DNA of 64,000 nt from an uncultured Desulfobacterales bacterium (GCA_964480485.1 CAYZOP010000003.1:184057-248056); one strand, 5' to 3'. Numbered from the stretch's first letter, positions 6,081 to 25,548 are shown. A program made the numbers and translations. The notes: generated by a model from the letters alone, not told the origin.

Positions 6081-6105
6081 CTTTTTACTCCTTGGCTCCG
6101 GGGAA

Positions 6106-11489: not shown

Positions 11490-13826
11490 ATGGAAAAACA
11501 CCACAGCTGCCTGAACACCCGGGCTATCATCGAATATTTCCAGGAGCATTTCCCCCACCAGGTGGAGAGTTTGTTGAGTGGACTGGACGCGGAAATTTGC
11601 CGGCTCCCCAACCCCCGGGAGTTCCTCATGGAGACCAACAACTGGGTTTCCAGCCGCGTGGTCATCCAGATGTTTGACAATGCCAAGCGGCTCACCCGGG
11701 ATCCGGAAATCGCCTTCAAAATCGGCTTTGACTCCGCTTCCCGCAAAAAATTGGGCTACGTCCAGCGCATTATCCTGTTGGCTTACAAAAATCCCCGCAT
11801 GTCTGTCAAAAGAGTGCAGAAAATTAATGATAAATTTAATAGAAACAAGCGCATCGAACTTGTTAACAGTGATCGTACCAGCGCTACCATCAGGCTGCAC
11901 TGGTTTAAAGATATCCCCAGCGCGAAAGACTTTTGTCGGTTCAACAAGGGAATATATGCCGGCATCCCCACTATTTGGAATCTTCCCCCTGCCATTCTGG
12001 AAGAAACCCGGTGTTTTTTTCAGGGCGAACCTTATTGCGAGTATCACATCAAGTGGATAAAGAAATTCTCTGTAAGAGAACGGTTATTGAATTTTCTCGT
12101 TCCTTGGCGGGCCCTGAAATATACCATTGAGGAACTGGAGCGCGACAAGGATCTTCTCAGGGCAAAATTTGAAGAAGTCCATCGCTTGAATATTGAGCTC
12201 AGGGAAAAAATCGACGAACTCCTCAAGTTGCAGGAGGAGTTGCGCAAGAGTGAAGCGAAATTCCGCAACCTTCTGGATTACCTGCCTGGGGTGGCCGTCC
12301 AGGGTTATGACGCCCGGGGGCGGATTCTTTACTGGAACAAGGCCAGCGAGGAGATTTACGGGTATACTGCCGCTGAAGCCGTGGGACAGAGCGTCGAGAC
12401 CCTGATCATCCCCCCGGGGCTTACCGATTGGTTCCGGCGGGGTTTGCAGCAGGGGGCCGAAGCCTTCAGGAGCGGAGAGTTCCTGCCGCCCGGAGAGCAG
12501 TATCTGAAGCGCAAGGACGGCGGCCTCAGGCCCGTGCACTCCATCCACACGGTGGTCTGCCTGGACCAGAGCGAACCCCTGATGTTCCGCATCGACGTGG
12601 ACCTGACGGAGCGCAAGCGGGTGGAGGAAGAGCTCAGGAACTACCGGGACCACCTGGAAAAGCTCGTCCAGGAACGCACCGCCGAACTCACCGAGGTCAA
12701 CCTCAGTCTCCAACAGGAAATCCAAGGACACCAGCGCACCGAAAAGGCGCTCCGGGCCAGCGAAGAGCGGTTTCGCACCATCTTTGAAGGGGCTCCCGTG
12801 GGCATCGGCCTGAGCGACCTGGAGGGATGCTTCCTCACCGGCAACCCGGCTTTGGCCCGGATCCTGGGCTACAGCCTGGCCGAACTGCGGGGCTTGAACT
12901 TCAATGCCCTCTGCCACCCCGAGGAGGCGGCTGTGGGGGAGACCCTCTTTGGGGAACTGATCCGGGGAAACCGGCCGTTTTATGAGCGGGAAGGACGCTG
13001 CCGCCATCGCAACGGGTCATATCTCTGGTACTGGGTGCATGTCTCGCCCATTCGGGACACCGCGGGGATACCCCAGTTCGCCCTGTTCATGCTCAAAGAC
13101 ATCACCCGGGACAAGCAGGTTCAGGAAGAGATTCAGGCCTATCAGGAGCGGCTGCGCTCCCTGGCTTCTGAGCTGGCCCTGACCGAAGAGCGGGAGCGGC
13201 GCCGCCTGGCCGCCGACCTCCATGACCATATCGGCCAGATCCTGGCCATGGCCCAGATCAAGCTGGGGGCGATCCTGAACGAGGCACAGTCCCCCGCCGC
13301 CGAGGCCGCGGTCCACGAGATCCGGACCTTGCTCCGCCAGGCCATCCAATATTCCCGCTCCCTCACCTTTGAATTGGGCCTGCCGGTGCTCTATGATCTG
13401 GGGCTGGAAGCTGCGGTGGAATGGCTGGCCGACCAGATTCATGAGCAGCACGGCCTCCCCGTCCGGGTGACCCGGGACCAGCAACCCAAGCCCTTGGGGG
13501 AGGCGGCCAGCCTGCTCATCTTCCGGGTGCTGCGGGAATTGCTCATCAACGTGGTGAAACACGCTGACGCCTCCCGGGTGGAGATCGATATCCACCGGGA
13601 GGGAGACCATCTGGCTGTCCGGGTAACGGACGACGGCCGGGGATTCGATCCCAGGGAGGCCGCTTCCCTGGCAAGGCGCACCCCCGGGTACGGGTTGTTC
13701 AGCATCCGGGAGCGCCTGAGCCACTTGGGCGGCTATCTGGACATCCGCTCCGGGGCAGGCCGGGGCACCTCCGCCACCGTCGTGGTCCCCCTGGATCTGA
13801 ATAAGGAGATGATGGTGGCCAATTAG
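11490..13826 (+). CDS. sensor histidine kinase: V4R/DUF2378-like N-terminal domain, coiled coil, PAS domains, HisKA_3, HATPase_c
   Basis: The N-terminal roughly 190 aa end in LEETRCFFQGEPYCEYHIKW (V4R-like Cys pair). PAS segments follow (YWNKASEEIYGYTAAEAVGQS; FLTGNPALARILGYSLAELRG). The dimerisation/phosphoacceptor region is RRRLAADLHDHIGQ (NarX/DegS type). The ATPase region is GRGFD...GYGLFSIRERL. Confidence 0.9.
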   Translation: MEKHHSCLNTRAIIEYFQEHFPHQVESLLSGLDAEICRLPNPREFLMETNNWVSSRVVIQMFDNAKRLTRDPEIAFKIGFDSASRKKLGYVQRIILLAYKNPRMSVKRVQKINDKFNRNKRIELVNSDRTSATIRLHWFKDIPSAKDFCRFNKGIYAGIPTIWNLPPAILEETRCFFQGEPYCEYHIKWIKKFSVRERLLNFLVPWRALKYTIEELERDKDLLRAKFEEVHRLNIELREKIDELLKLQEELRKSEAKFRNLLDYLPGVAVQGYDARGRILYWNKASEEIYGYTAAEAVGQSVETLIIPPGLTDWFRRGLQQGAEAFRSGEFLPPGEQYLKRKDGGLRPVHSIHTVVCLDQSEPLMFRIDVDLTERKRVEEELRNYRDHLEKLVQERTAELTEVNLSLQQEIQGHQRTEKALRASEERFRTIFEGAPVGIGLSDLEGCFLTGNPALARILGYSLAELRGLNFNALCHPEEAAVGETLFGELIRGNRPFYEREGRCRHRNGSYLWYWVHVSPIRDTAGIPQFALFMLKDITRDKQVQEEIQAYQERLRSLASELALTEERERRRLAADLHDHIGQILAMAQIKLGAILNEAQSPAAEAAVHEIRTLLRQAIQYSRSLTFELGLPVLYDLGLEAAVEWLADQIHEQHGLPVRVTRDQQPKPLGEAASLLIFRVLRELLINVVKHADASRVEIDIHREGDHLAVRVTDDGRGFDPREAASLARRTPGYGLFSIRERLSHLGGYLDIRSGAGRGTSATVVVPLDLNKEMMVAN

Positions 13827-13842: not shown

Positions 13843-14478
13843 ATGGAAGAGCGGGTCAGCATTCCGGGGCCGGGAGTCTGCCTGGAGGGGCGGTTTCAGG
13901 CCGGGACCGGGGCCGGGGGGGTGATCATCACCCACCCCCATCCTCTCTACGGTGGCAGCATGGACAACAACGTGGTGTGGACGGCCCGGCAGGCCTTTGG
14001 GGCTCGGGGGGCGGCCACTTTGCGCTTCAATTTTCGCGGCGTGGGGCAGAGCACCGGGACTTTCGGCCAGGGACTGAAGGAAGTGGAGGACCTGGAGGCA
14101 GCCTTGGCCTGCTTGCGCGGCCGCACTCCGGGTCCCTATGCAGTGGTGGGATATTCCTTCGGCGCGGCGGTGGCAGCCCGGTCCTTGCTGACCGGTCTCC
14201 AGGGGGTGGCAGGCCTCCTCATCGCCCCGCCCATCGCCTTCATGGACCTGGCCTTTCTCCCCCGGGTGCCGCGGCTTGCCGGCCTCGTGGTGGGGGAGTT
14301 TGACGATCTGTGCCCCCTGCCGGAACTGAAGCGTCTGCTGTCGGGCCGACCCGAGCCAGTGCCTCTTTCGGTGGTGCCGTTGGCGGACCATTTTTTCAGC
14401 GGCAGAGAGGAGGCTTTATACCAGGTGCTGAAAGATTTTCCCCTGATGGGCTGGGGACCGGCTGATGCGCCCGCCTGA
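13843..14478 (+). CDS. alpha/beta hydrolase (COG2945-like)
   Basis: ITHPHPLYGGSMDNNVV and the nucleophile elbow GYSFGA. 211 aa. Confidence 0.8.
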   Translation: MEERVSIPGPGVCLEGRFQAGTGAGGVIITHPHPLYGGSMDNNVVWTARQAFGARGAATLRFNFRGVGQSTGTFGQGLKEVEDLEAALACLRGRTPGPYAVVGYSFGAAVAARSLLTGLQGVAGLLIAPPIAFMDLAFLPRVPRLAGLVVGEFDDLCPLPELKRLLSGRPEPVPLSVVPLADHFFSGREEALYQVLKDFPLMGWGPADAPA

Positions 14479-15682
14479 GTCGCCGGCGGATTCCGGGCCG
14501 TCCCCTGAGCAGGCCGTGTCCCGGGTGCTCATCGTCGCCTGGGACCGGACCTGCCTCATCCCGGTGTTCGGCGAGGCCGCCTTGTTCCGCCTGGTGCGCC
14601 TGGCCGCTTCCGAAAACCGGGCAGTCACGGTGTGGCTGGCCCCCGATCTCCTCACCGTCCTTGCCGGGAGGCCCCGGCAGGCGCAGACCCTGGTGAGCTG
14701 GCAGGTTTTGGATTTCGCCGAACTCCCGAAGGCCGGCCCTACCCTGGCAGCCGACCCCGACGAGACGCTTCTGGTACTTTCTGGGAACAGCGTCTGGGAC
14801 CGCCTCACCTTCCGGGCCGCCCTGGGAGCGGCCGGGAGGCACGGCCCGTTTTCTCCCTGTCGGCTGAAGGCCCGGGAGGTGACGGCAGCGGTGGCCGGAT
14901 GGCGGGAAACCGGCGGGAATCTGCCTGCCTTGGGTTCCACCCTGCCGGTTTTTCTCCACCGCCCGGAGGATTCCCGGCTGGCAGAGTCCCTGCTGGTGTC
15001 GGCCCTGGCGGCAGCCACCCAGGGAAGTGACGGCATGCTGGCCCGATGGGTGGACCGCCCCCTTTCCCGGCGGCTCAGCCCGGTGCTGGCGGCCCGGCGG
15101 ACGTCGCCCCACGCCGTCACGCTGGCGGGAACCACCGTCGGCTGTCTGGGGGCCCTGCTTCTGGCCCAGGGCGGTTATTGGCCGCATCTTTTGGGAGCCC
15201 TGCTGTTTCTGGCGGCGGTGGTCCTGGATGGGGTGGACGGCGAGGTGGCCCGCCTGACCGTGAGGGAGACGCGCTTCGGCCACTACCTGGACATCATCAC
15301 CGACAACCTGGTTCACCTGGCCGTGTTCTGCGGCATTGCCTGGGGGTTGTCCCGTCAGGCCGCCGATGTCCGCCACCTCTATGCCCTGGCCCTGCTGCTG
15401 CCAGGCTTCGGATTGAGCGCCCTGGCAGCCTACCTGGTGCTGACCCGAATCGAACTCCCGCCGGAGTGTTGGCCATCCTGGACGCGCCGGTTGGTGGCCG
15501 CCCTCAACAGCCGGGACTTTGCCTATGTGGTGGTGCTCCTGGCAATGATGGACCGGTTGGCCTGGTTTCTCTGGGGGGCGGCGGTGGGAAGCAATGTCTT
15601 TGCCGGCTGCTTGTTTCTGCTTTACCGACAATGCCGGCGCCCTCCGCCCCAAGGCGGCTTAAGTATAAGGAGACCCACGTGA
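14465..15682 (+). CDS. CDP-alcohol phosphotransferase, DIPPS-like, with N-terminal degenerate nucleotidyltransferase-like domain
   Basis: Perfect motif D-x2-DG-x2-AR-x8-G-x3-D-x3-D (DGVDGEVARLTVRETRFGHYLDIITD, nt 15227-15304). The preceding linker DGMLARWVDRPLSRRLSPVL resembles IPCT-DIPPS fusions. The N-terminal roughly 190 aa lack a GxGxRL loop. Confidence 0.85.
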   Translation: MRPPESPADSGPSPEQAVSRVLIVAWDRTCLIPVFGEAALFRLVRLAASENRAVTVWLAPDLLTVLAGRPRQAQTLVSWQVLDFAELPKAGPTLAADPDETLLVLSGNSVWDRLTFRAALGAAGRHGPFSPCRLKAREVTAAVAGWRETGGNLPALGSTLPVFLHRPEDSRLAESLLVSALAAATQGSDGMLARWVDRPLSRRLSPVLAARRTSPHAVTLAGTTVGCLGALLLAQGGYWPHLLGALLFLAAVVLDGVDGEVARLTVRETRFGHYLDIITDNLVHLAVFCGIAWGLSRQAADVRHLYALALLLPGFGLSALAAYLVLTRIELPPECWPSWTRRLVAALNSRDFAYVVVLLAMMDRLAWFLWGAAVGSNVFAGCLFLLYRQCRRPPPQGGLSIRRPT

Positions 15683-15801
15683 TGTCAACCGGCACCGCCA
15701 GAGCCTCGGGCTGGGGGCGGTGACTCCCCGGAAAGCTTCATGGCCCGCCGCGCCGGTGCCCGGTCAGTCTTTTTTTCACCCTTATGCCCAAGTGAGAACC
15801 T

Positions 15802-16509
15802 ATGTCCCCGATTGATTTGCGCCACGTTCAGGGAGTCCTCTTCGATCTGGGGGGCACCCTGGACGGCGACGGCGAACACTGGCTGAACCGCTTCTGGCTG
15901 CTCTACCAGAAGCATCTCCCGGAGGTGACCTTCTCCGAGCTGAAGGCCGCCTTTTACCGAGCCGAGGAGGTCTGCCTGGCCGATCCCCAGGTTGCCTCCC
16001 TTACCCTGCCCCGCCTGGTTGATTTCCATGTGGCCCGGCAGTTAGCCGCCCTGGGGCTTGGTGAGGCCGCCGCCCCCAAACTCTCACGGGAATTTCTGGA
16101 GGGCTGCCGCCAGGTTATCCGGCGCAACGCCTATCTTCTGCACAGTCTGGTTAACCGCTACCGGCTGGGGGTGGTCACCAACTGGTACGGCAACGCCGCC
16201 CGCCTCCTGGCTCAGGAAGCCATCGCCCTGTGGTTCGCAGTCATCGTGGATTCAGCCCAGGTGGGCGTGCGCAAGCCCGATCCGGCCATCTTCCGCCTGG
16301 CTGCTAAGGAACTGGGCTTCCCACCGGACCAGGTGGTTTATGTGGGGGACTCCTACGGCCAGGACATCCGGCCGGCCAAGGCCGCGGGCCTGATTACCGT
16401 GTGGCTCCGAAACGACGCCATGAGCGCGCCGCTGCCCCCGGACTTCGACCCCGCCCTGGCAGACTTCGAGATTCACCGCCTCACCGAATTGGAGGAACTC
16501 CTGCCGTGA
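15802..16509 (+). CDS. HAD-superfamily hydrolase
   Basis: Motif I is VLFDLGGTLD (D-x-G, so the second Asp is replaced). Motif IV is VYVGDSYGQDI. 235 aa. Confidence 0.85.
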   Translation: MSPIDLRHVQGVLFDLGGTLDGDGEHWLNRFWLLYQKHLPEVTFSELKAAFYRAEEVCLADPQVASLTLPRLVDFHVARQLAALGLGEAAAPKLSREFLEGCRQVIRRNAYLLHSLVNRYRLGVVTNWYGNAARLLAQEAIALWFAVIVDSAQVGVRKPDPAIFRLAAKELGFPPDQVVYVGDSYGQDIRPAKAAGLITVWLRNDAMSAPLPPDFDPALADFEIHRLTELEELLP

Positions 16510-17198
16510 AGGGAGGCATCATCGCCGCCGGGGTGGGCAGCCGCCTGGCCCAAGGCGGCGTGGTTGCTCCCAAACCCCTGGTGCGGGTGGCGGGCGATAC
16601 TCTCATCGGCCGGGTCATCCGGGAAATGGCCGCCGCCGGCGCCGCCTCGGTGGCGGTCATCACCACCCCGGCCTTCCCTCAAGTGGCTGCCTACCTGCGC
16701 CGGGAGCCCTGGCCTCTTCCGGTGTCCGTTACGGAATGGGCCAGCCCCCATTCTCTGGCCAGTCTGCTGGCGCTTAGGCCCTTTCTGGACGAACCCTTTG
16801 TGCTGTCCACGGTGGACGCCATCCTGGCCCCCGGCGCCCTGGCCCGCTTTGCCGCCGCCGCCCAAGCTGCCGCCGCTGACGGAGCCCTGGCCCTCACCTC
16901 CTGCATCGACGACGAAAAGCCGCTGTATGTGGAGCTGGGGCCTGACCACCGGGTGCTCTCCGTGGGCCGGGGGAAAAGCCCCTGGATCACCGCGGGCTGC
17001 TATGCCTTTACGCCCCGGGTGTTCGACTTCGAGGCCGCGGCCCGGGCCCGGCGGTTGTCGGCCCTGCGGCAGTTCCTGGCCTTCCTGGCGGAGGCTGGCT
17101 TCACCCTGACGGGAATCGACGTGGGTCCGGCGGTGGACGTGGACCACCCTGAGGACCTCGCCCGGGCCGAGGCGTTTCTGAGATCCGGCGTCTTCTGA
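16506..17198 (+). CDS. nucleotidyltransferase (NTP transferase fold), candidate inositol-1-phosphate cytidylyltransferase
   Basis: The GTG start at 16506 overlaps the HAD stop (GTGA). GIIAAGVGSRL is the GxGxRL nucleotide-binding loop, followed by KPLVRVAG. The substrate is inferred from context only. Confidence 0.75.
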   Translation: MKGGIIAAGVGSRLAQGGVVAPKPLVRVAGDTLIGRVIREMAAAGAASVAVITTPAFPQVAAYLRREPWPLPVSVTEWASPHSLASLLALRPFLDEPFVLSTVDAILAPGALARFAAAAQAAAADGALALTSCIDDEKPLYVELGPDHRVLSVGRGKSPWITAGCYAFTPRVFDFEAAARARRLSALRQFLAFLAEAGFTLTGIDVGPAVDVDHPEDLARAEAFLRSGVF

Positions 17199-17392
17199 AA
17201 GAGGGAGGTGGAGGCCCCCGGCCAGCCCCCTCAGGCTCCCTCCCCCAACCCCTGATTGGGAGGCTGATGGGCGGGTTTGCCCAAAGACCGGAGCGCCGCA
17301 CTCCCCCAGGCCTCCCCGCACCGGCGGTTAGCCGGGCCCCTTCCTCATTTTGGGGATGACAAGGGGGCCGGCGACCTGATAGAAAATACCAT

Positions 17393-18226
17393 TTGGCTGA
17401 CGCGATGCTTCGACCTGAGCGCACCATCGTCGGCATCTACCGGGAGACCGCCCTGTCCCCCGGCAAGGTGGAAGCCGACGCCGCCATCTTAAACGAGGTG
17501 CTGGCCGGCCTGGAAACCGCCGGCTGGAAGACCCTCACCCTCTCTGCCGACGACCTGCCCCAGAGGCCGCCGGCGGCCAGGGGGGTCTTGCACCTGGCCC
17601 AGGGGCCTGAGGCCCTGAAGCGCCTCATAGCCTGGGAGGCTGCGGGCCTGAGGCTCATCAATTCGCCCCAGGCGGTCCGTCGCTGCTACCGGCGGTTTCT
17701 GCCGCCCATCATGGCGAAGGCCGGGGTGCCTTACCCGGAGACCCGCCTGTACGGCCGGCTGCAGGCCGAGGCCGACTTCCCCCGGGAGTTTCCCGGCCCC
17801 GGCTGGCTGAAGCGGGCGGAAATCCACGCCGAGGGCCCCGGCGATGTGCGCCTGGTGCATACCCTGGGCGAGGCTTGGGAGGTATTGGGGGACTTCCGAG
17901 CCCGGGGCATCGACGCCTTGGTCTGGCAGGAGCACCTCGCCGGCCGGGAGATAAAATTTTACGGCGTCGGCCCGGGACGGTTTTTTTGGGCTGCGGCCGC
18001 CGACGGCGAGGCCGACCTGCCGCAGGCAGAGAGGGCGCGGCTGGCCTCCCTGGCCGTCAAGGCCGCCGGGGCGGTGGAGCTCACGGTCTTCGGCGGCGAT
18101 GCCATTCTCACCCCCGAGGGGAACCCCGTACTCATTGATCTGAACGACTGGCCCAGCTTTTCCCGCTGCCGGGAGGCCGCGGCCAAGGAGATTGTGGCCC
18201 ATGTCCTTGACACCTTCGCAGACTGA
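17393..18226 (+). CDS. ATP-grasp fold protein, function unknown
   Basis: The C-terminal FGGDAILTPEGNPVLIDLNDWPSF is the ATP-grasp metal-binding strand (D-x-N variant). 277 aa. An alternative start exists at 17405. Confidence 0.7.
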   Translation: MADAMLRPERTIVGIYRETALSPGKVEADAAILNEVLAGLETAGWKTLTLSADDLPQRPPAARGVLHLAQGPEALKRLIAWEAAGLRLINSPQAVRRCYRRFLPPIMAKAGVPYPETRLYGRLQAEADFPREFPGPGWLKRAEIHAEGPGDVRLVHTLGEAWEVLGDFRARGIDALVWQEHLAGREIKFYGVGPGRFFWAAAADGEADLPQAERARLASLAVKAAGAVELTVFGGDAILTPEGNPVLIDLNDWPSFSRCREAAAKEIVAHVLDTFAD

Positions 18227-19550
18227 ACCAACCCCTTCCTCCCGCTCCCGGGAGCTGTTTCAGGCCGAACTCCCGTATCTCTCCCCGGGGTTCCAGAACG
18301 TGGCCCTGCTGGCCGAACTGGTGCTGGACCGGGGCCGGGGGCGCCACCTGTATGACGTGGACGGCAACCGCTATCTGGACTTCATGGCGGGCATCGGCGT
18401 CTGTTCCCTGGGTTACAGCCACCCGGCCTGGGTCAAGGCGGTGAGCGAGCAGGTGGCCAAACTTACGGTGGGGAGCTTCGCCACGGAAAACCGGGGGAAG
18501 TTTTTAAGACGCCTGGCCGAAGTCGCCCCGGGGGAGCTCTCCCAAACCATGCTCTACTCCGGCGGCGCCGAGGCGGTGGAGGCGGCCATCCGCCTGGCCA
18601 AAGCCTACACCGGCAAATTCGAGGTCCTGGCCTTCTGGGGCGGCTTCCACGGCAAGACCGGCGGCGTCCTCGGCCTCATGGGCAGCACCTTCAAGCAGCA
18701 TTGGGGGCCGCTGCATCCCGGCCTCCACCTGGCGCCCTACGCCTACTGCGAGCGCTGCCCCTTCAAGCTCACCTACCCGGGCTGCGGCCTCCACTGCCTG
18801 GACTTCGCCCGGGAGGTCCTCCGGCTGAACACCGCCGGCGCCCTGGCCGCCATCCTGGTGGAGCCGGTGCAGGGCACCGCGGGCAACGTGGTGCCGCCCC
18901 CGGAATTCCTGCCGGGGGTGCTGGAGATCTGCCGGGAGCAGGGGGCGCTTTTGATTGCCGATGAAATGCTCACCGGCTTCGGCCGCACCGGTCGGCTCTT
19001 CGGGTGTGAGCACTTTGGGGTGGTCCCCGACGTCATCACCATAGGGAAGGGCATGGGGAGCGGCTTCCCGGTGAGCGGACTGATCTCCACGCCGGAGATC
19101 ATGCGGGCCAAACCCTACGCCAACCCGTCCGCCGCCTCTTCCAGCTACGGGGGCAACCCCCTGGCGGGCACCGCGGCCTGGATCACCCTGGAGACCCTGC
19201 TGGCCGAAAAGATCGTGGAAAATTCCGCCAAGGTGGGCGACTACCTGCTCCACCGCCTCCTGGAACTCCGGGAACGCTACCCCTTTATCGGCCGGGTGCA
19301 GGGCAAGGGCCTGATGATCGGCCTGGAATTCGTGCGGCACCGGGAGCATGACCGCACCCTGCTCCCCGGCAAGGTCATGGAGGTGGTCTTCAAGGAGTCG
19401 CTGAAGCGGGGCCTGATCAGCATGAACTACACCGCCCAGTTCCGCATCAACCCGCCCCTGACCCTCACCGAGAGCGAGGCCGACGAGGGGGTGCGCATCC
19501 TGGATGAGGTCTTCGCTCTGGTGGAGCGACAGGAACTCCACCGCCGGTGA
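18201..19550 (+). CDS. class-III PLP-dependent aminotransferase
   Basis: LDFMAGIGVCSLGYSHP, ADEMLTGFGRTGRLFG and VITIGKGMGSGFPVSG (PLP lysine). ATG at 18201 with AAGGAG upstream. The gene overlaps the ATP-grasp 3' end by 26 nt. Confidence 0.9.
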   Translation: MSLTPSQTEPTPSSRSRELFQAELPYLSPGFQNVALLAELVLDRGRGRHLYDVDGNRYLDFMAGIGVCSLGYSHPAWVKAVSEQVAKLTVGSFATENRGKFLRRLAEVAPGELSQTMLYSGGAEAVEAAIRLAKAYTGKFEVLAFWGGFHGKTGGVLGLMGSTFKQHWGPLHPGLHLAPYAYCERCPFKLTYPGCGLHCLDFAREVLRLNTAGALAAILVEPVQGTAGNVVPPPEFLPGVLEICREQGALLIADEMLTGFGRTGRLFGCEHFGVVPDVITIGKGMGSGFPVSGLISTPEIMRAKPYANPSAASSSYGGNPLAGTAAWITLETLLAEKIVENSAKVGDYLLHRLLELRERYPFIGRVQGKGLMIGLEFVRHREHDRTLLPGKVMEVVFKESLKRGLISMNYTAQFRINPPLTLTESEADEGVRILDEVFALVERQELHRR

Positions 19551-19703
19551 GGCTGAGAATGGCTGGGGCGGGGGGAACCGGACCCCCCCTGCCCTGAAAC
19601 TCCCTGCAAGGGGCTGGGGGAGCGGTTTGGAAAGGGGGAAGGGGTCTGGGGCCCTGGGCCCCCGCTCCCCCCTTAGGTTCATCATGGTTTTCAGGATTTG
19701 GAG

Positions 19704-20744
19704 ATGTCGCCGCCTGTCCCTGAGCAACCTCTGACCGGCGCACTGGTGGGCTTCGGCAAGGTGGCGGAGATGGCCCATCTGCCGGCGTTTCAGGCCACCC
19801 CGGGCTTCCGCCTGGCCGCCGTGGCTGATCCTCTGCCTGAGCGCCGGGCCCGGGCCCGGGAGCTGCTGCCCGATATCCCGGTCTATCCCGACCAGGCCGC
19901 GCTCCTGGCGGGCCAGGCCCCCCTGGATTTCGTGGACCTCTGCACTCCGCCCGCCGACCATTCCCCACTGGCCCTGGCGGCCCTTGCCGAAGGCTGCCAT
20001 GTCCTCTGCGAAAAGCCGCTGACTCTTAATCTTTCGGAACTGGCCGTTCTGGCCGACGCGGCCGCAGCCCGCGGCCGGGCCCTGGTGACGGTGCACAACT
20101 GGAAATACGCCCCCATCATCGCCACCGCCCTGGATTGGCTCAGGGCCGGCGCAGTGGGGGAGGTGAGGCACCTGGAATGGGAGGTGCACCGCACCTCGGG
20201 CAGCGGCGGCGGCCTTACCGACTGGCGTCAGCAGGGGGGGAGCAACACCGGGGGCATCCTGGTGGACCACGGCTGGCATGCCTTTTACCTCCTCCTGGGC
20301 TTGGCCGGGGCCGCGCCCCAGGCGCTCAGGGCCAGGATGGCGCCCCTCCCCGAGGCGCCCCGGGGGGTGGAGCACGAGGCCGAGGTGGACCTGAGATTCC
20401 CCGGCGCCCGGGCCCGCCTCTTTCTCACCTGGCGGGCTGCGGTCCGGCGCAATTGGGGCAGGGTGGCGGGAACCACGGGGGAGCTGGTGCTGGACGACGA
20501 CCGGCTTATTCTCCGCCGGGCCCATCAGCCGGAGGCAGTGCAGCGGTTTCCGGAGAAATTGAGCGGCGGCTCCCACCACCCCCAATGGACCTTGGGCGCC
20601 TTGGAGGAGTTTGCCGGCGAAATCCGGGAGCCCGGCCGCCGGGGGCGGAATCTGGCGGAAGCTGCGGCCTGCGCCCGCCTCATCGACCTGGCCTACCGCT
20701 CCCATGCCGCCGGCGGGGCTTGGCAGGACTATCCCTCCGGATGA
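19704..20744 (+). CDS. Gfo/Idh/MocA family oxidoreductase
   Basis: GALVGFGKVAEMAHLPAF (Rossmann fold) and GCHVLCEKPL (EKP motif). Confidence 0.85.
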   Translation: MSPPVPEQPLTGALVGFGKVAEMAHLPAFQATPGFRLAAVADPLPERRARARELLPDIPVYPDQAALLAGQAPLDFVDLCTPPADHSPLALAALAEGCHVLCEKPLTLNLSELAVLADAAAARGRALVTVHNWKYAPIIATALDWLRAGAVGEVRHLEWEVHRTSGSGGGLTDWRQQGGSNTGGILVDHGWHAFYLLLGLAGAAPQALRARMAPLPEAPRGVEHEAEVDLRFPGARARLFLTWRAAVRRNWGRVAGTTGELVLDDDRLILRRAHQPEAVQRFPEKLSGGSHHPQWTLGALEEFAGEIREPGRRGRNLAEAAACARLIDLAYRSHAAGGAWQDYPSG

Positions 20745-21715
20745 AACTGCGCCTGGATTTCAATCTCCTGGCGGGCTGCCTGGGGGCCCTGGTGCTGGCG
20801 GTCCTGCTGTACCGCCTGGGGCCGGCCGCGGTTCTGGCGGAACTTGGCCGGGTGGGCTGGGGCTGGGCCCTCATCATCGGCCAGGAAATCCTGCCCATCC
20901 TGGCCAACACCTGGGGGTGGCACTGCACCTTCCTCAAGCCCCTCCGCCAGGTTCCCCTGGGGCGTCTGTTCCGCATGCGCCTGGCCGGAGACGGCTTCAA
21001 TTATCTCATCCCCAGCGCCACCCTGGGGGGAGAGGTTCTCCGCGTCAACCTCCTGCGCCGGGAGATGGCCGTGGGGGCCGCCGCCGCCTCGGTAACCGTG
21101 GCCAAATTCACCCAGTTCCTGGGCCAGGCCCTCTTCATCGCCTTGGGCCTGATGTTGGCCGCGCCCTTTGCCCCCCTAAAGCCCGGTCTCCTGCCGGTGC
21201 TCTGGGCCCTCCTGCTGGGCTGCGTCATCTTTCTGGGGCTGGTGCTCCTGGGCCTGTGGCGGGGGATGTTTTCCCGGCTCACCCGCCTGCTCCTGGCCTG
21301 GCTGCCGGCGCGGCTCAAGGGCTACCTCCCGGTGGACCAGGCGGCGGAGCTGGACCGGGACATTTCCGCCTTCCTCAGGGACGACCAGCCCGCCTTCTGG
21401 GCCTCCACCCTTAGCTTCGGCCTGGCTTGGGCGCTAGGCTCCGTGGAGGTGCTCCTCATCTTTTATTTCTTAGGGCTGCCGCCGGACCTGGCCACCGCCG
21501 TCACGGTGGAGACCTTGAGCGTCTTCATCGACGCGCTGCTCTTCTTTGTGCCCGGGAAGCTGGGCACCCAGGAGGGCGGCAAGGTCCTTATCTTCATAAG
21601 CCTGGGCCTGCCGCCGGTCTCCGGCCTGGCTTTCGGCCTCATCCGCCGGATCCGGGAGCTCACCTGGGCCGGCCTGGGCGTGGCCTGCCTGTTTACCTTT
21701 CGGGAAGACCGTTAA
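20741..21715 (+). CDS. UPF0104 / lysylphosphatidylglycerol-synthase-TM-like (flippase-like) membrane protein
   Basis: The ATG at 20741 overlaps the oxidoreductase stop (ATGA). MKLRLDFNLLAGCLGALVLAVLLYRLG... is polytopic, and FFVPGKLGTQEGG is typical of the family (from memory). Confidence 0.75.
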   Translation: MKLRLDFNLLAGCLGALVLAVLLYRLGPAAVLAELGRVGWGWALIIGQEILPILANTWGWHCTFLKPLRQVPLGRLFRMRLAGDGFNYLIPSATLGGEVLRVNLLRREMAVGAAAASVTVAKFTQFLGQALFIALGLMLAAPFAPLKPGLLPVLWALLLGCVIFLGLVLLGLWRGMFSRLTRLLLAWLPARLKGYLPVDQAAELDRDISAFLRDDQPAFWASTLSFGLAWALGSVEVLLIFYFLGLPPDLATAVTVETLSVFIDALLFFVPGKLGTQEGGKVLIFISLGLPPVSGLAFGLIRRIRELTWAGLGVACLFTFREDR

Positions 21716-21882
21716 GGAGCGGGCCGGGAGCGTTGGCCTCCCCGCCCCCCCTCAAACTCCTCTCCCAGTCCCCCAAATTAACCGGGGAAGGCCGGGTCGA
21801 TGACCCTGCCTTCCCCGGTTTCCCATTCAGGATTGGGGGTGGGGGCAAGGGGCCGCACCCTTTACCCCCTCCCCTGTAGGCG

Positions 21883-23034
21883 TTACCGTTCCCTCTTCCC
21901 CTGGATGAATTCCTCCACCCCCTTGGCGGCTTCTTCGTCCGGCATGGTTTCGGGAGGGTGTTTCATGGTGTAGGCGGAGATGGAGGTCAGGGGCCCCCCA
22001 ATGCCCCGGTCCCGGGCCAGTTTGGCGCAGCGCACCGCGTCAATCATACAGCCGCCGCTGTTGGGGGAGTCCTCCACCGAGAGGCGCATCTCCAGATGCA
22101 TGGGGAAACCGCCGAATCCCCGGGCCTCAAGGCGCAGAAAAGCGACTTTGTTGTCCTTCTGCCAGGGCACATAATCCGAAGGGCCTACGTGCAGGTTGTT
22201 GGCCTCGAAATCCGGGGGGAGCAGGGAGCTCACCGCCTCCGTCTTGGAGCGCTTCTTGGTGGCCAGCCGCTCCCGGTTCAGCATGTTCAGGAAGTCGGTG
22301 TTGCCGCCGACGTTGAGCTGATAAGACCGGTCCACCGTGAGGCCCCGCTGCCGGAAAAGGTGCACCAGGGTGCGGTGCAGGATGGTGGCGCCCAACTGGC
22401 TCTTGACGTCGTCCCCCACCACCGGAATCCGGGCCTCGACAAACCGCCTGGCCCACTGGGGGTCGGAAACAATGAAGGTGGGCATGCAGTTGATGAAGGA
22501 GACCCCAGTCTTTAGGCAGCATTCGGCATAATGGCGGGCGGCCTGCTCGGAGCCAACCGGCATGTAGTTGAGCAAGACTTCGGCGCCGCTCTCTTTAAGC
22601 ACCTGGGCCACGTCCACCGGCGGCGCTTCGGCCACGACAAAGGTCTGCTCCGGGGGGTACTGGGCCATGTGCGGGGAATAGCCGTCCAACACCGGGGCCA
22701 TCTGCACGGTTACCGGGATCTCCGGGAAATCTTCAACGATACGGTAACAGCAGTTGGGAGGGGCGAAGATGGCCTCGGAGACCGGCCGCCCCACTTTGCG
22801 GCGGTCGATGTCAAAGGCGGCCACCACCTTCAAGTCACCGGGGGCATAGCCGCCGATATCCGGGTGCATCAGCCCCGGGGGCCATGCTCCGGCCTGACCC
22901 TGAAACCTGCGATAATACTCAATTCCCTGCACCAGGGCGCTGGCGCAGTTCCCCACTCCAGCGATGGCAATCCGGATTTTTCCCACGAGGGCTTCTTTTC
23001 CACAAGGTAAGTGTGCGCGGCGGGACTGACCCAC
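21883..23034 (-). CDS. ino1: myo-inositol-1-phosphate (inositol-3-phosphate) synthase
   Basis: KIRIAIAGVGNCASALVQGIEYY..., a roughly 380-aa prokaryotic MIPS type. The start is uncertain: ATG at 23034 or GTG at 22986. Confidence 0.9.
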   Translation of the reverse strand: MGQSRRAHLPCGKEALVGKIRIAIAGVGNCASALVQGIEYYRRFQGQAGAWPPGLMHPDIGGYAPGDLKVVAAFDIDRRKVGRPVSEAIFAPPNCCYRIVEDFPEIPVTVQMAPVLDGYSPHMAQYPPEQTFVVAEAPPVDVAQVLKESGAEVLLNYMPVGSEQAARHYAECCLKTGVSFINCMPTFIVSDPQWARRFVEARIPVVGDDVKSQLGATILHRTLVHLFRQRGLTVDRSYQLNVGGNTDFLNMLNRERLATKKRSKTEAVSSLLPPDFEANNLHVGPSDYVPWQKDNKVAFLRLEARGFGGFPMHLEMRLSVEDSPNSGGCMIDAVRCAKLARDRGIGGPLTSISAYTMKHPPETMPDEEAAKGVEEFIQGKRER

Positions 23035-24272: not shown

Positions 24273-24791
24273 TCAAAACGGGGTCAGCAGGGGAGAGACA
24301 AACCTGCCCCCGGCCAGAACCTGCCGGATGGCGCCGATGAGGTCCGTATCGGTATCTTCTTTCAACAGATAGCCGTTGGCGCCAGCCTCCAGAGCCTGCT
24401 CACAATACTCCCGGTTGCGGTGCATAGTCAGGACCAACACCTTGATGTCCGGGTGGGCTGCTTTGAGGCGGCGGGTGGCTTCAATGCCCGGCAACCGGGG
24501 CATGGTGATATCCATGATGACGAGGTGGGGGCGGCAGGTTTCCAATAGCGCCAGAAGTTCCAGGCCATCGCGAGCCTCCCCGATGACCTGGAAGTCGGCT
24601 GCACCTTCCAGGAATCGCCTGACCAGCTGGCGAAAGAGCTGGTGATCTTCGGCGATGACAATAGTCCAAGGACGAGGCGCAGCATCTTCAGAGGTTCGGG
24701 CGGGATGCCCTCCAGCACTCATCAGCGTCCCCAAATTTTTCCGGGATGGCTCCATGACTCTTATCTGGGCATCCAGTAGTTCCGTCATCAC
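24273..24791 (-). CDS. stand-alone response-regulator receiver protein (NarL-type REC without HTH)
   Basis: IVIAEDHQLF, HLVIMDITMP, VLVLTMH and GYLLKED retain all receiver catalytic positions. The protein ends where the neighbouring paralog continues into its LuxR HTH. The start is uncertain (24791, 24755 or 24722). Confidence 0.8.
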   Translation of the reverse strand: MMTELLDAQIRVMEPSRKNLGTLMSAGGHPARTSEDAAPRPWTIVIAEDHQLFRQLVRRFLEGAADFQVIGEARDGLELLALLETCRPHLVIMDITMPRLPGIEATRRLKAAHPDIKVLVLTMHRNREYCEQALEAGANGYLLKEDTDTDLIGAIRQVLAGGRFVSPLLTPF

Positions 24792-24900
24792 GTGAGTAGC
24801 CGTATTGTATGGAAAGGGCTCCCGTTGAGTCCATAGTACTTAACGACTATTTTAATGATGAGTAAAACTACTTAGGCCGGAGGGGGGAAGGGCCCGGGAG

Positions 24901-25548
24901 TCAGGTGGCGTAGCCTTTTTGCAGGGCGTAGCGCACCAGGTCGGTGGTCTTTCTCAGATTCAGCTTCCGCATGATGTTGGCCCGGTGATTCTGCACCGTA
25001 CGGTCGCTGATGAAGAGTAGCTCTGCAATCTCTTTGCTGGATTTGCCTTCGGCGATGAGCTTGAGTATCTGCTTTTCCCTCAGCGTCAGCGGCTCGGTCA
25101 GCGACGGCCCCCGGCCCTGATATTCGCTGATGAGCAGGTCCTGGAGGCGGGGGGCCATCAGGGGCGAAAGGTATTTTTCTCCGGATTGGAGGGTCCTGAC
25201 GGCCTGGAGCAGTTCCTGGGAGGCATCCTCTTTGACCAGGTAGCCGTCGGCCCCGTTCCGGAAGGCGTGGTAGAGATATTCCTGTTCCTTGTGCATGGTC
25301 AGCACCAGGACCTTGACGGCGGGGGTCAGGGATTTGATTTCTCCCAGCACCTCCATGCCCCGCATCTGAGGCATGGAGATATCCAGCACCACCAGCTGGG
25401 GGGTGACGGTCTTCAGCAGATTGAGGAGCTCCAGGCCGTTGTTGGCTTCCCCGATGATGTGGACTTCGGGCAGCTCCTCCAGGATCCGCCGGATGCCTTG
25501 GCGGAACATGGGATGATCATCGGCCAAAACGACGGTGACGGGCTTCAT
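24901..25548 (-). CDS. NarL/FixJ-family response regulator (REC + LuxR-type HTH)
   Basis: VVLADDHPMF, LVVLDISMP and GYLVKED, then LTLREKQILKLIAEGKSSKEIAELLFISDRTVQNHRANIMRKL. Confidence 0.95.
   Translation of the reverse strand: MKPVTVVLADDHPMFRQGIRRILEELPEVHIIGEANNGLELLNLLKTVTPQLVVLDISMPQMRGMEVLGEIKSLTPAVKVLVLTMHKEQEYLYHAFRNGADGYLVKEDASQELLQAVRTLQSGEKYLSPLMAPRLQDLLISEYQGRGPSLTEPLTLREKQILKLIAEGKSSKEIAELLFISDRTVQNHRANIMRKLNLRKTTDLVRYALQKGYAT

Follow-up and report, generated by a model that had tools for sequence, protein, structure and literature searches.

What does a group of nine genes make that joins inositol-phosphate enzymes to an ATP-grasp enzyme, an aminotransferase, an oxidoreductase and a flippase-like protein, and so goes beyond the known di-myo-inositol phosphate (DIP) pathway? 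We addressed this in a window of 64,000 nucleotides, the whole stretch of DNA analysed, from an uncultured Desulfobacterales bacterium. All nine genes were present at the stated coordinates and could be assigned to families, with eight on the + strand (13843-21715) opposite a convergent MIPS (myo-inositol-1-phosphate synthase) gene on the - strand, as originally predicted. Direct reading of the junctions found all four of the start/stop overlaps that had been claimed, of 14 nt between the hydrolase and transferase genes, 4 nt (GTGA) between the HAD and NTP-transferase genes, 26 nt between the ATP-grasp and aminotransferase genes and 4 nt (ATGA) between the oxidoreductase and flippase genes. 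The description 'tightly packed' suits these four translationally coupled pairs but needs qualifying, because between successive pairs lie gaps of 119, 194 and 147 nt. A PAS/HisKA_3 sensor histidine kinase gene (11490..13826, + strand; Pfam families) stops 16 nt short of the first cluster gene (13843), in a position conserved in four related loci; it is probably co-transcribed with the cluster and its product is a candidate regulator. The first cluster gene itself, encoding an alpha/beta-hydrolase (Abhydrolase_6/Hydrolase_4 profile match; 13843..14478, + strand), occurs only in a Desulfobaccales-like subgroup of seven loci and is a lineage-specific accessory.

Contigs of Desulfobacca acetoxidans-like bacteria and of other Desulfobacterota showed the same gene order at 45-85% protein identity, and Desulfobacca acetoxidans and Desulfoferrobacter suflitae DRH4 are among the carriers. 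The cassette is also present in Binatia and in Methylomirabilota/Rokubacteria, as well as in numerous metagenome contigs from peat, soil and sediment. The order HAD-NTP-ATPgrasp-AT-GFO(-flippase), where AT is the aminotransferase and GFO the oxidoreductase, lies by the transferase gene in 31 of 69 GTDB loci and in 39 metagenome contigs, from several phyla. This arrangement is far beyond chance, and the expected synteny of the downstream genes with the inositol core is seen across phyla in dozens of genomes. The operon is thus real, widely conserved in bacteria and hitherto uncharacterised, and we treat it as one pathway because gene order is conserved, natural fusions occur and four gene pairs are coupled.

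The CDP-alcohol phosphotransferase (14465..15682, + strand; CDP-OH_P_transf PF01066, E 6e-13) is AF2299-like, with a degenerate cytidylyltransferase-fold domain (about residues 1-165) and a six-helix membrane domain whose signature is intact (D255-G-x-D258-G-x2-A-R...G272-x3-D276-x3-D280). Its profile scores were 96 bits for AF2299 (E 2e-26), 83 for AfDIPPS and 59/45 for PIPS, all 15 family members scored DIPPS > AIPS ~ PIPS >> PgsA/PssA, and its AF2 model (pLDDT 84) had its best Foldseek match in the IPCT-DIPPS structure 4mnd (435 columns, TM 0.62). The enzyme groups with AF2299 and IPCT-DIPPS, outside PgsA/PssA. The label 'DIPPS-like' therefore stands as to nearest relatives, AF2299 and AfIPCT-DIPPS, but we rejected a true DIPPS: the GxGxR loop is deleted from the N-terminal domain, and the family motif N-R-D-F-A-Y, with its invariant Ala, takes the place of R-D-x-R-L. 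About 60 family members have Ala, Thr or Ile in place of the second Arg of RxxR, which is conserved in four DIPPS-type proteins; no conserved C-terminal Arg was present in the family. Scores on the DIPPS equivalog model (73 bits, cut-off 580) and the PIPS model (58 bits, cut-off 170) were below threshold. In PIP synthase the second Arg (R155 of MtPIPS) binds the acceptor phosphate (PMC4634129), and because it is Ala here a DIP-type reaction seems unlikely; since both it and the C-terminal Arg are missing in the family, the acceptor would not be a phosphate ester.

These residues bear directly on whether the product could be a soluble compatible solute, that is, a modified di-inositol-phosphate- or glycerophosphoinositol-type phosphodiester made from a CDP-alcohol and a phosphorylated acceptor and then dephosphorylated by the HAD. 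IPCT and DIPPS are the closest characterised relatives, six-helix enzymes of this class have so far been found with soluble acceptors only, lipid-acceptor enzymes having extra helices (PMC4634129), the HAD could serve as product phosphatase, and the record titles of some carriers point to hot or hydrothermal samples. We nevertheless find this reading quite improbable: the family has lost both Arg positions that bind phosphate in the acceptor pocket, which true DIPPS-type proteins keep, the DIPPS equivalog score falls far below its cut-off, the oxidoreductase gene is translationally coupled to the flippase gene in the window, relatives are flanked by hopanoid genes and by RND/OEP/MlaC-like genes for lipid export, and metagenomes from peat, soil and sediment, in which one would not look for thermoprotective solutes, commonly carry the cassette.

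Downstream, the HAD-IA hydrolase (15802..16509, + strand; profile match) has a non-canonical motif I, F-D-L-G-G-T-L-D (DxGGT), without the Asp+2 general acid of ordinary phosphatases. The stand-alone IPCT-like NTP-transferase (16506..17198, + strand; NTP_transf_3) has an intact signature (A-A-G-V-G-S-R-L ... K-P-L), and its nearest solved relative is the A. fulgidus CTP:inositol-1-phosphate cytidylyltransferase 2xme (full length, E 3e-6); with the transferase nearest AF2299/AfIPCT-DIPPS, the proposed inositol-type core of IPCT/DIPPS chemistry is borne out. The orphan ATP-grasp enzyme (17393/17405..18226, + strand) was recognised from a weak sequence signal together with AF2/Foldseek, every signal in the Pfam search being sub-threshold with no family reached. 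Its ATP site is intact (K136, Q175-E-H-V, K184-F-Y, D245-L-N247), its motifs D-x-N-x-[WF]-P-S-F and K-F-Y-x-x-G resemble those of ITPK kinases, and its AF2 model (pLDDT 94) matched ArgX/LysX/RimK/Ddl at a Foldseek TM of about 0.74, with profile matches in the PDB to PsnB (1e-6), ITPK4 (0.002), RimK (0.007) and ITPK1 (0.01). The family comprises about 560 clusters at 50% identity (E<1e-30) and includes natural NTP-ATPgrasp fusions in at least 7 clusters (six confirmed by Pfam), a HAD-NTP-ATPgrasp fusion (P0287) and an ATPgrasp-CDP-OH transferase fusion. The HAD accompanies the ATP-grasp in 31 of 31 cassette loci and occurs in none of the 38 loci without it; HAD, NTP-transferase and ATP-grasp form an inseparable trio.

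The ATP-grasp had been proposed to acylate or phosphorylate the product. Because the trio is fused and is kept where the aminotransferase and oxidoreductase are absent (six loci, one with MIPS), the enzyme more likely belongs to the activation core, as a kinase or activation-step enzyme rather than an acylase of the new amine; the second half of the proposal is favoured and acylation is not obvious. The acylating version, in which a carboxylate-amine or ester-forming ligase would yield an N-acyl or aminoacyl inositol-phosphate lipid moved by an MprF-type flippase, a tRNA-independent MprF analogue, draws on the Foldseek top 50, all of them ligases (ArgX, LysX, RimK, Ddl, PsnB; TM 0.6-0.75), on the ester-forming PsnB as top profile match (E 1e-6), on ATPgrasp_ST and RimK as the commonest weak Pfam matches, on the 26 nt overlap with the aminotransferase gene and on the LPG_synthase_TM flippase. 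The aminotransferase-made amine cannot, though, be an obligatory substrate, because the ATP-grasp is kept in loci without the aminotransferase; the recurrent fusions are with NTP-transferase, HAD and CDP-OH transferase and not with the aminotransferase, and many family loci have the flippase but no ATP-grasp. We regard the ligase as rather unlikely.

The class III (PLP) aminotransferase (18201..19550, + strand; Aminotran_3 PF00202, 327 bits) has GABA-AT-like enzymes and racemases as nearest solved relatives and a top NCBIfam score of 363 bits against a cut-off of 552. The Gfo/Idh/MocA NAD(P) oxidoreductase (19698/19704..20744, + strand; profile match) retains the motifs G-F-G-K-V-A, E-K-P and D-H-G-W-H, the solved structures related to it are of dehydrogenases for secondary alcohols of sugars and cyclitols, and it reached at most 78 bits on an NCBIfam model whose cut-off is 330 (IolG, 48 bits). 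Neither reached a substrate-specific NCBIfam cut-off, and neither fits a family of known substrate specificity, in keeping with the original prediction. The stand-alone flippase-like membrane protein (20741..21715, + strand; LPG_synthase_TM PF03706, 99 bits) is HpnL-like, scoring 141 bits on TIGR03476 (cut-off 196), and its gene adjoins the oxidoreductase gene in most related loci. A lipid-linked product, as had been suggested, fits this flippase and the HpnN-like/OEP/MlaC-like export genes adjoining relatives' loci.

The MIPS (21883..23034, - strand; Inos-1-P_synth PF01658, 121 bits) scored 428 bits on TIGR03450 with an alignment beginning at ORF residue 20; its true start is probably near 22980, and a promoter-like site precedes it at 23078-23050 on the - strand. 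Its convergent position is conserved in 11 loci, and a second, co-directional arrangement directly upstream of the HAD occurs in nine, among them L123, where HpnA overlaps MIPS by 4 nt. Counted within 10 kb, MIPS is adjacent in 5 of 31 cassette loci (GTDB), 13 of 39 cassette metagenome contigs and 10 of 38 cassette-free family loci. The supposed co-occurrence therefore recurs in two arrangements but is seen in no more than roughly one sixth to one third of loci. Inositol is the substrate we favour because MIPS adjoins the cassette in two different arrangements. Were the adjacency incidental, another phospho-sugar or phospho-acid would pass through dehydrogenase, aminotransferase and HAD steps of the kind known from NtdCAB (kanosamine) or SerACB and then be CDP-activated. 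Roughly two thirds or more of cassette loci lack a MIPS gene within 10 kb, the oxidoreductase and aminotransferase fit no substrate-specific family, and IPCT-like transferases accept phosphocholine, phosphoglutamine and phosphoglycerate, the last being used by CpgD (PMC12275187). Such a substrate is very doubtful all the same, given that MIPS adjacency recurs in divergent lineages and two gene orders, including the HpnA/MIPS overlap in L123, and in cassette-free MIPS-NTP-transferase loci, that both core enzymes are nearest inositol-phosphate enzymes and that MIPS may lie elsewhere in genomes with MIPS-less loci.

In other bacteria the transferase family is often embedded in hopanoid loci, a strong association that did not figure in the original prediction. 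The L123 contig reads HpnB-SQS-HpnH-HpnA-MIPS-HAD-NTP-ATPgrasp-AT-GFO-transferase-HpnL, and beside family members we found HpnK (351 bits, cut-off 233), HpnI (316, cut-off 310), HpnH (542, cut-off 225), HpnA (506, cut-off 368) and HpnB (385, cut-off 379), as well as SHC, SQS (squalene synthase), HpnN-like RND and MlaC-like HpnM. No hopanoid genes were present in the 64 kb window or within +/-10 kb in its nearest relatives. The searched hopanoid literature, in which the function of HpnL is stated to be unknown (bioRxiv 10.1101/2025.07.29.667474), made no mention of a CDP-alcohol transferase, MIPS or such an ATP-grasp, and the literature searched yielded no phosphorylated hopanoid. The presence of the same genes inside hopanoid lipid gene clusters elsewhere hints at an undescribed lipid class.

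We put at about even the chance that the cluster is an operon that makes and activates a polar head group derived from inositol, probably an aminated one, and attaches it to the membrane. From the family assignments we infer the reaction steps. MIPS would convert glucose-6-phosphate to inositol-3-phosphate, which the HAD, Gfo/Idh/MocA dehydrogenase and class III aminotransferase could take through free inositol and inosose to an aminocyclitol (inosamine), the dehydrogenase/aminotransferase pair being an optional add-on. The ATP-grasp, as a kinase or other ATP-dependent activating enzyme, would supply a phospho-alcohol, from which the IPCT-like NTP-transferase and CTP would give CDP-(amino)inositol. 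The AF2299-like transferase would then form a phosphodiester with an acceptor that bears no phosphate. For this a membrane lipid alcohol is most likely, of diacylglycerol type, or a bacteriohopanepolyol where the genes sit in hopanoid clusters, and the HpnL-like flippase would carry the product to the outer leaflet, with further export in relatives by HpnN-like RND, OEP and MlaC-like proteins. Of the modified inositol-phosphate solute or phospholipid head group first proposed, this retains an inositol-derived lipid head group and gives up the DIP-type reaction and the acylating ATP-grasp.

The polarity could also be reversed, with MIPS and HAD (with or without GFO/AT) supplying free (amino)inositol as a soluble acceptor, the ATP-grasp and NTP-transferase phosphorylating and CMP-activating a lipid alcohol such as a bacteriohopanetetrol side chain, and a PI-synthase-like transferase yielding hopanoid-phospho-(amino)inositol. 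This would explain the six-helix architecture, the loss of acceptor-phosphate Arg residues, the strict HAD/ATP-grasp co-occurrence even in loci without AT/GFO, the NTP-ATPgrasp and ATPgrasp-transferase fusions and the embedding in clusters such as L123. We hold it improbable, however, in that IPCT itself is the top match of the NTP-transferase, which is IPCT-like, small and soluble, and we know of no soluble enzyme of that fold activating a lipid phosphate; the MIPS-NTP-transferase-flippase loci without the cassette, in Nitrospinota and Erythrobacter, fit a CDP-inositol donor better, and neither hopanoid genes in the window and closest relatives nor a phosphorylated hopanoid in the searched literature were found. 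Against the CDP-(amino)inositol route we likewise counted that, to our knowledge, inosose aminotransferases are DegT-type and not class III. Also counted against it were the other phospho-substrates of IPCT-like transferases (CpgD, phosphoglycerate; PMC12275187) and the six-helix enzymes known with soluble acceptors only. The same holds for the lack of MIPS within 10 kb in most cassette loci, the nearest ATP-grasp structures being carboxylate-amine ligases and not kinases with Pfam signals sub-threshold, the HAD without Asp+2 and the 64 kb window without a hopanoid gene.

Chemical precedent exists in the streptidine pathway, where an inositol phosphatase, a Gfo-type dehydrogenase, an aminotransferase and an inosamine kinase act in sequence, the kinase on the aminocyclitol; its scyllo-inosamine steps and NtdCAB kanosamine synthesis share with the window a Gfo/Idh/MocA enzyme for the ketone, an aminotransferase for the amine and an HAD or other phosphatase. 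As far as we know, however, their aminotransferases are DegT/StsC-type, their kinases are not ATP-grasp enzymes and neither pathway finishes with CDP activation or attachment to the membrane. AF2299 of Archaeoglobus fulgidus (PDB 4o6m/4o6n/4q7c), the top profile match of the transferase, is structurally solved, and we know of no physiological reaction assigned to it. In both proteins a 'cytidylyltransferase-like' domain outside the membrane sits on a catalytic domain of 6 TM helices (PMC4634129 for AF2299; Foldseek), but at only about 17% identity the orthology is putative. The PIP synthase route (Mycobacterium PgsA1, Renibacterium PIPS, Bacteroides BT_1523/BT_1525) likewise pairs an inositol-phosphate-clade class I CDP-alcohol phosphotransferase with a subsequent phosphatase; it differs in the acceptor-phosphate Arg pair, not conserved in the window family, in the PIPS score and in that a CDP-DAG-dependent route would need no soluble NTP-transferase. 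With hopanoid side-chain/transport clusters (hpnA-hpnN, hpnL) the window shares an HpnL-like flippase, though one below the HpnL cut-off, and bona fide HpnA, HpnB, HpnH, HpnI and HpnK lie next to the transferase or cassette in related loci.

Also similar by description is the putative 'alternative inositol lipid cluster' of Bacteroides vulgatus/Prevotella, with MIPS, NTP-transferase, CDP-alcohol phosphatidyltransferase and HAD, often adjoined by a lysyl-PG-synthase-like (flippase-domain) gene, for which a Kennedy-type CDP-inositol route is proposed and functionally unconfirmed (Heaver et al. 2022, PMC9246714). Genes of all five kinds also occur in the window, whereas ATP-grasp, class III aminotransferase and Gfo/Idh/MocA genes and a hopanoid association are absent from that description, and the HAD is strictly tied to the ATP-grasp in the window's family. 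The top sequence and fold matches are to the IPCT/DIPPS pathway to DIP (Archaeoglobus, Thermococcales, Thermotoga; PDB 4mnd, 2xme), which has in common with the window MIPS, a CTP:inositol-phosphate cytidylyltransferase-like enzyme, a class I CDP-alcohol phosphotransferase and a phosphatase-family gene, and in the transferase the cytidylyltransferase fold, six TM helices and intact DxxDGxxAR...GxxxDxxxD. Unlike IPCT/DIPPS, the window transferase has no GxGxR loop, the active NTP-transferase being a separate gene, and lacks the second RxxR Arg and the C-terminal Arg; the window adds ATP-grasp, aminotransferase, oxidoreductase and flippase genes, and its family is set among hopanoid genes and genes for lipid export, not in a context of solute production.

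The genes named in the original prediction were all recovered by ORF listing and profile searches. Along the + strand an alpha/beta-hydrolase gene (13843-14478) is followed by those of a CDP-alcohol phosphotransferase with an N-terminal extension of ~165 residues (14465-15682), a HAD-IA hydrolase (15802-16509), an NTP_transf_3 nucleotidyltransferase (16506-17198), an ATP-grasp protein placed by profile search with faint RimK/ATP-grasp signals only (17405-18226), a class III aminotransferase (18201-19550), a Gfo/Idh/MocA oxidoreductase (19704-20744) and an LPG_synthase_TM flippase-like protein (20741-21715), whilst the gene for MIPS (myo-inositol-1-phosphate synthase) lies on the - strand (21883-23034). 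All four claimed start/stop overlaps were confirmed (-14 nt, GTGA, -26 nt and ATGA); the four translationally coupled gene pairs that they form are spaced 119, 194 and 147 nt apart. GC content in the window is 57-69%, and the nearest named relatives of its proteins belong to Desulfobaccales MAGs and Desulfobacca acetoxidans. Scanning for promoters and terminators found nothing significant inside the cluster, with 9 terminator-like sites against 13.5 expected from shuffles and so no enrichment. Between the transferase and HAD genes, the 119-nt gap holds a short GC hairpin with a T-run (15752-15775), which might act as a weak terminator or attenuator within the cluster.

A PAS/HisKA_3 histidine kinase gene (11490-13826, +) ends 16 nt upstream of the cluster, a position kept in four related loci (L001, L003, L010 and L011), and past MIPS the stretch 24273-28427 (-) holds two response regulators, one of the LuxR/GerE type, and a large HisKA_3 kinase with GAF/PAS domains, a group also kept in L003 and L005. 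Two-component control of the cluster is a possibility. Further upstream (7458-10896) a FadL/Toluene_X outer-membrane channel gene (+) stands beside an overlapping - strand pair, a dipeptide-epimerase-like MR_MLE gene and an LpxL/PatA-like acyltransferase gene (Lip_A_acyltrans). Among the relatives only close ones (L001, L003 and L011) have this group beside the cluster, so that a link to lipid remodelling is possible and inseparable from general synteny. Downstream are a classic A2M/PBP1c pair, i.e. a bacterial alpha-2-macroglobulin (1742 aa) and an overlapping PBP1c-type penicillin-binding protein (29099-36708), an N6/N4 DNA methylase (36745-38028, -) and a flagellar export block encoding FliR, FlhB, FlhA, an FlhF-like SRP GTPase and an FlhG/MinD-like ATPase (44036-50090, +), with ProRS and RelA/SpoT later.

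The synteny of the four downstream genes with the core is firm across Desulfobacterota, Binatia, Methylomirabilota/Rokubacteria and other groups, as the counts in two differently anchored sets of loci demonstrate. In the first, 80 GTDB species-representative loci anchored on the transferase were scored with the window proteins and the 69 of at least 6 kb were counted. ATP-grasp was found in 31 of these 69, accompanied by HAD in 31/31, the NTP-transferase in 30, the aminotransferase in 26, the oxidoreductase in 24 and the flippase in 18, and HAD occurred in none of the 38 loci without ATP-grasp. The second set took ATP-grasp as an independent anchor and comprised 39 metagenome contigs, each 6 kb or longer, with the NTP-transferase in 38, HAD in 33, the aminotransferase in 32, the oxidoreductase in 30 and the flippase in 24.

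The constant unit of this cassette is the trio HAD-NTP-transferase-ATP-grasp. Aminotransferase and oxidoreductase are cleanly missing in six loci (L039, L043, L118, L119, L140 and L141), L140 for example reading MIPS-HAD-NTP-ATPgrasp-flippase-OEP-RND. Searching 1.84 billion representatives at E<1e-30 returned an ATP-grasp family of about 560 clusters at 50% identity, among which at least seven clusters are natural NTP-ATPgrasp fusions, six of them Pfam-confirmed (P0240, P0268, P0273, P0306, P0324 and P0352) and P0363 recognised by length only. One homologue (P0287) is a natural HAD-NTP-transferase-ATP-grasp fusion, and another (P0319) joins ATP-grasp through a linker domain to a CDP-OH transferase. 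Together, trio constancy and fusions place ATP-grasp in the activation pathway itself, and its retention without aminotransferase and oxidoreductase means that it cannot depend on an amine made by the aminotransferase. The proposal that ATP-grasp acylates the new amine is weakened by both observations; we favour a kinase-type or other activating step beside the cytidylyltransferase.

The ATP-grasp AF2 model (pLDDT 94) matches ArgX, LysX, Ddl and RimK in Foldseek (TM 0.70-0.75), making the predicted fold assignment secure, and K136, Q175, K184, D232, D245 and N247 are invariant. Against solved structures the family profile gave PsnB (1e-6), ITPK4 (0.002), RimK (0.007) and ITPK1 (0.01), the ITPK matches resting on the C-terminal motifs D-L-N-D-W-P-S-F and K-F-Y-x-x-G. 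Pfam signals among 36 members were weak (ATPgrasp_ST in 24/36, RimK in 8/36 with a best E of 6e-6, Ins134_P3_kin in 7/36), and the window protein fell below the cut-offs for ATPgrasp_ST (16 bits; cut-off 31.4) and RimK (12.6 bits; cut-off 21). With sub-threshold signals divided among these three models, the family is an orphan. A ligase, giving an aminoacyl or acyl head group, is the rival to a kinase here: RimK-type similarity recurs in profile and fold, the Ins134_P3_kin and ITPK matches recur beside it, and the persistence of the trio without the amine-forming pair stands against acylation of that amine.

In other loci the cassette often has a gene for a B12-binding radical SAM protein beside it (L004, 11186-12508; next to HAD in many loci, among them L015, L019, L021, L027 and L039), with none in this window. 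Its identification as HpnJ or HpnR was rejected (77-80 vs 578 and 56-61 vs 650 bits, respectively), the best matches being BchE and a ‘lipid biosynthesis B12/radical SAM’ model.

The CDP-alcohol phosphotransferase carries the class I signature (D255-G-V-D258-G-E-V-A-R263 ... G272-H-Y-L-D276-I-I-T-D280), invariant in 15 family members. NCBIfam models ranked identically for the window protein and 14 relatives, with IPCT/DIPPS, the archaeal di-myo-inositol phosphate (DIP) enzymes, ahead of archaetidylinositol-P synthase and PIP synthase (PIPS), which were about level, and ordinary PgsA/PssA far behind and lowest in 15/15 members (window protein: DIPPS 73 bits, PIPS 58, PgsA 27, PssA 25). None of the 15 reached an equivalog cut-off, the window protein scoring 73 bits on NF041135 vs a cut-off of 580, and the best E on that model was 2e-27. 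Against solved structures the family profile scored 96 bits with AF2299, 83 with AfIPCT-DIPPS and 59/45 with PIP synthases, and Foldseek returned 4o6m/4o6n/4q7c (E about 1e-9, TMt 0.68-0.71). The AF2 model (pLDDT 84) aligns to the whole bifunctional 4mnd structure (TM 0.62), indicating a cytidylyltransferase fold in the N-terminal domain. The closest relatives are thus AF2299-like proteins, combining a cytidylyltransferase-like extramembrane domain with a six-helix catalytic domain.

Two features of the family depart from this template. A 12-residue loop with GRSERL in P0089, P0094 and P0097 is deleted, and the family alignment contains no GxGxR motif; the predicted cytidylyltransferase domain is therefore degenerate, its fold kept and its nucleotide loop lost. 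In one distant member (L082, 9272-10723), whose transferase part is of the family type (NRDFAY), the fused N-terminal domain has an intact GKGSRF loop, which suggests descent of the degenerate domain from an active cytidylyltransferase. The acceptor pocket has also changed: the window protein reads R350-D-F-A353-Y where DIPPS-type proteins have R-D-x-R-L, and ~60 family members show N-R-D-F-[A/T/I]-[Y/H] and no conserved C-terminal Arg. The second Arg of RxxR presumably corresponds to R155 of M. tuberculosis PIPS, a mapping made partly through the PgsA1 sequence, of which the first 125 residues were confirmed by alignment. R155 binds inositol phosphate, and R155/R195 are residues of the PIPS pocket (PMC4634129). 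Loss of the second and the C-terminal Arg suggests an acceptor other than a phosphorylated cyclitol, which is evidence against a DIP-type or PIP-type reaction. The same evidence weighs against a soluble DIP-like solute as product, a reading to which the IPCT/DIPPS kinship would lend itself. Of the description ‘DIPPS-like enzyme’, the kinship with IPCT/DIPPS/AF2299 stood up by profile and fold; catalytic equivalence did not, given the missing GxGxR loop and acceptor Arg and the low NF041135 score, and judged by sequence the transferase is AF2299/IPCT-DIPPS-like but no DIPPS. A second CDP-alcohol transferase paralogue occurs beside oxidoreductase and flippase in five hopanoid loci (L013, L014, L021, L066 and L073), with G-R-R-[NS]-I-Y where the family has N-R-D-F-A-Y.

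The soluble NTP-transferase keeps the GxGxR/K signature, and its best solved relative over the full length is the A. fulgidus CTP:inositol-1-phosphate cytidylyltransferase. A MIPS gene is found no more than 10 kb away in 5/31 transferase-anchored and 13/39 ATP-grasp-anchored cassette loci and in 10/38 cassette-free family loci, the last including MIPS-transferase-NTP-flippase in Nitrospinota and MIPS with NTP in Erythrobacter/Qipengyuania. It recurs in two orders, convergent downstream in a Desulfobaccales-like group that includes this window, and co-directional directly upstream of HAD in a ~40%-identity lineage (L110-L112, L116, L123, L134, L136, L140 and L145). This independent recurrence and the kinship of the two core enzymes with IPCT/DIPPS make inositol the best-supported substrate; as MIPS is missing from most loci, it is a substrate that we infer. 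A cassette substrate other than inositol would suit the loci without MIPS, and phosphocholine, phosphoglutamine and phosphoglycerate are likewise activated by enzymes of the NTP-transferase fold (PMC12275187); the MIPS linkage and the affinity for inositol enzymes favour inositol. An aminopentanetetrol (APT) head group was considered and dropped as less likely, the MIPS linkage favouring a cyclitol and the family matches including no Aquificae/Thermodesulfobacterium-type taxa; APT lipids are known from Aquificae and Thermodesulfobacterium.

The aminotransferase and the oxidoreductase each appear catalytically intact, and neither reached a substrate-specific cut-off that would place it in a known-substrate family (aminotransferase 363 bits vs 552; oxidoreductase 78 bits vs 330, with IolG at 48 bits). 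Solved-structure searches with these two proteins and HAD returned generic relatives only. The aminotransferase, considered as a possible HpnO orthologue, was always located within the cassette, and hopanoid loci that lack the cassette do not have it. In HAD, motif I reads F-D-[LF]-G-G-T-L-D, with a conserved Gly replacing the Asp+2 general acid/base of HAD phosphatases (DxDx(T/V)); this holds in essentially all homologues covering the motif, one having G-A-T and 2/27 homologues being truncated there, and motifs II-IV ((T/S)N, K, GDS..D) are present. The Gly suggests an unusual substrate or leaving group, and HAD may be no routine sugar-phosphate phosphatase. The flippase-like protein (324 aa; PF03706 over residues 9-307) lacks a synthase domain and scored 17 bits on the bifunctional MprF model (cut-off 600), which sets it apart from MprF; its best NCBIfam match is HpnL (TIGR03476, 141 bits; cut-off 196), the same model giving 102-121 bits for flippases from bona fide hopanoid loci.

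All ORFs of the related loci were clustered and representatives scored against models. Beside the family or cassette this returned HpnK (351 bits; cut-off 233), HpnI (316; 310), HpnH (542; 225), HpnA (506; 368) and HpnB (385; 379), together with a squalene-hopene cyclase with the DDTA motif, squalene synthase, an HpnG-like phosphorylase, and HpnN-like RND transporters with OEP and MlaC-like partners. Counting hopanoid-specific and HpnN-like genes together, 15/31 and 18/39 loci with the cassette and 20/38 family loci without it have at least one, and squalene-hopene cyclase and/or HpnH adjoins the genes in ten (L020, L026, L032, L037, L073, L111, L116, L123, L136 and L154). Cassette and hopanoid side-chain genes are joined most directly in L123, a contig of 13 kb with 12 co-directional genes (1-12671) in the order HpnB-squalene synthase-like-HpnH-HpnA-MIPS-HAD-NTP-ATPgrasp-aminotransferase-oxidoreductase-AF2299-like transferase-HpnL-like, HpnA and MIPS overlapping by 4 nt. 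No hopanoid genes were found in the 64-kb window, nor within 10 kb in its nearest relatives L001, L003 and L005. To our knowledge HpnA and HpnB are still without functions. A hopanoid survey states the function of HpnL as unknown and leaves inositol and CDP-alcohol enzymes unmentioned (bioRxiv 10.1101/2025.07.29.667474).

We classify the cluster as a CDP-alcohol-based head-group pathway. The family assignments and gene linkage are observed, and the order of reactions proposed from them, the one that we consider most likely, is conditional. Ins-3-P from MIPS would be converted by HAD, oxidoreductase and aminotransferase, where the last two are present, to an inosamine; ATP-grasp would supply the phospho-alcohol and the IPCT-like enzyme the CDP-alcohol, which the AF2299-like transferase would couple to a non-phosphorylated, probably lipidic acceptor, the product being flipped by the HpnL-like protein. 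The streptidine pathway offers a precedent, proceeding from phosphatase to Gfo-type dehydrogenase, aminotransferase and kinase. With the polarity reversed, a hopanoid alcohol would be phosphorylated and CMP-activated and free (amino)inositol would be the acceptor, which agrees with the six-helix ‘soluble acceptor’ rule and with the Arg loss but needs an unprecedented substrate for the soluble NTP-transferase. We tentatively suggest, as a possibility that we consider less probable than its converse, an undescribed lipid class in which the AF2299-like transferase places a phospho-inositol or phospho-aminoinositol (inosamine) head group onto bacteriohopanepolyol or a glycerolipid co-exported with hopanoids.

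Were this true, AF2299-type enzymes, for which a physiological reaction would be suggested, and the flippase-like HpnL family would gain first functions, as would the orphan ATP-grasp family, in the role of a bacterial cyclitol kinase; that family is abundant in environmental anaerobes. An N- and P-bearing hopanoid or inositol biomarker would become predictable from Desulfobacterota, Binatia and Methylomirabilota genomes (peat, soil, sediments), and as a product, a phospho-(amino)inositol lipid or hopanoid would add to the known membrane components and could serve as a geochemical biomarker. Desulfobacca acetoxidans and Desulfoferrobacter suflitae DRH4 are cultured carriers. Inositol lipids are regarded as uncommon in bacteria, and a CDP-inositol (‘Kennedy-type’) route, so far unproven, has been proposed for Bacteroidetes; the cassette would extend such a route by amination and an orphan ATP-grasp step, and physically ties it to hopanoid biosynthesis and export genes.

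Literature on inositol gene clusters with ATP-grasp and aminotransferase genes, inosamine phospholipids, the biosynthesis of aminopentanetetrol, CDP-inositol lipids since 2022 and bacteriohopanepolyols with inositol yielded no characterised pathway of this kind, no aminoinositol lipid and no phosphorylated hopanoid. The gene set resembles the archaeal DIP pathway and also the ‘alternative inositol lipid cluster’ of Bacteroides/Prevotella, function unconfirmed, which comprises MIPS, an NTP-transferase, a CDP-alcohol transferase, HAD and a lysyl-PG-synthase-like neighbour (PMC9246714), five gene classes all present in 14465-23034. Bacteroidota matches to the family are distant Saprospiraceae only (30-31%). 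Unlike both known systems, the window combines a degenerate cytidylyltransferase domain and an altered acceptor pocket with an obligatory HAD/ATP-grasp partnership and an optional dehydrogenase/aminotransferase pair, and the family is linked to hopanoid biosynthesis and export.
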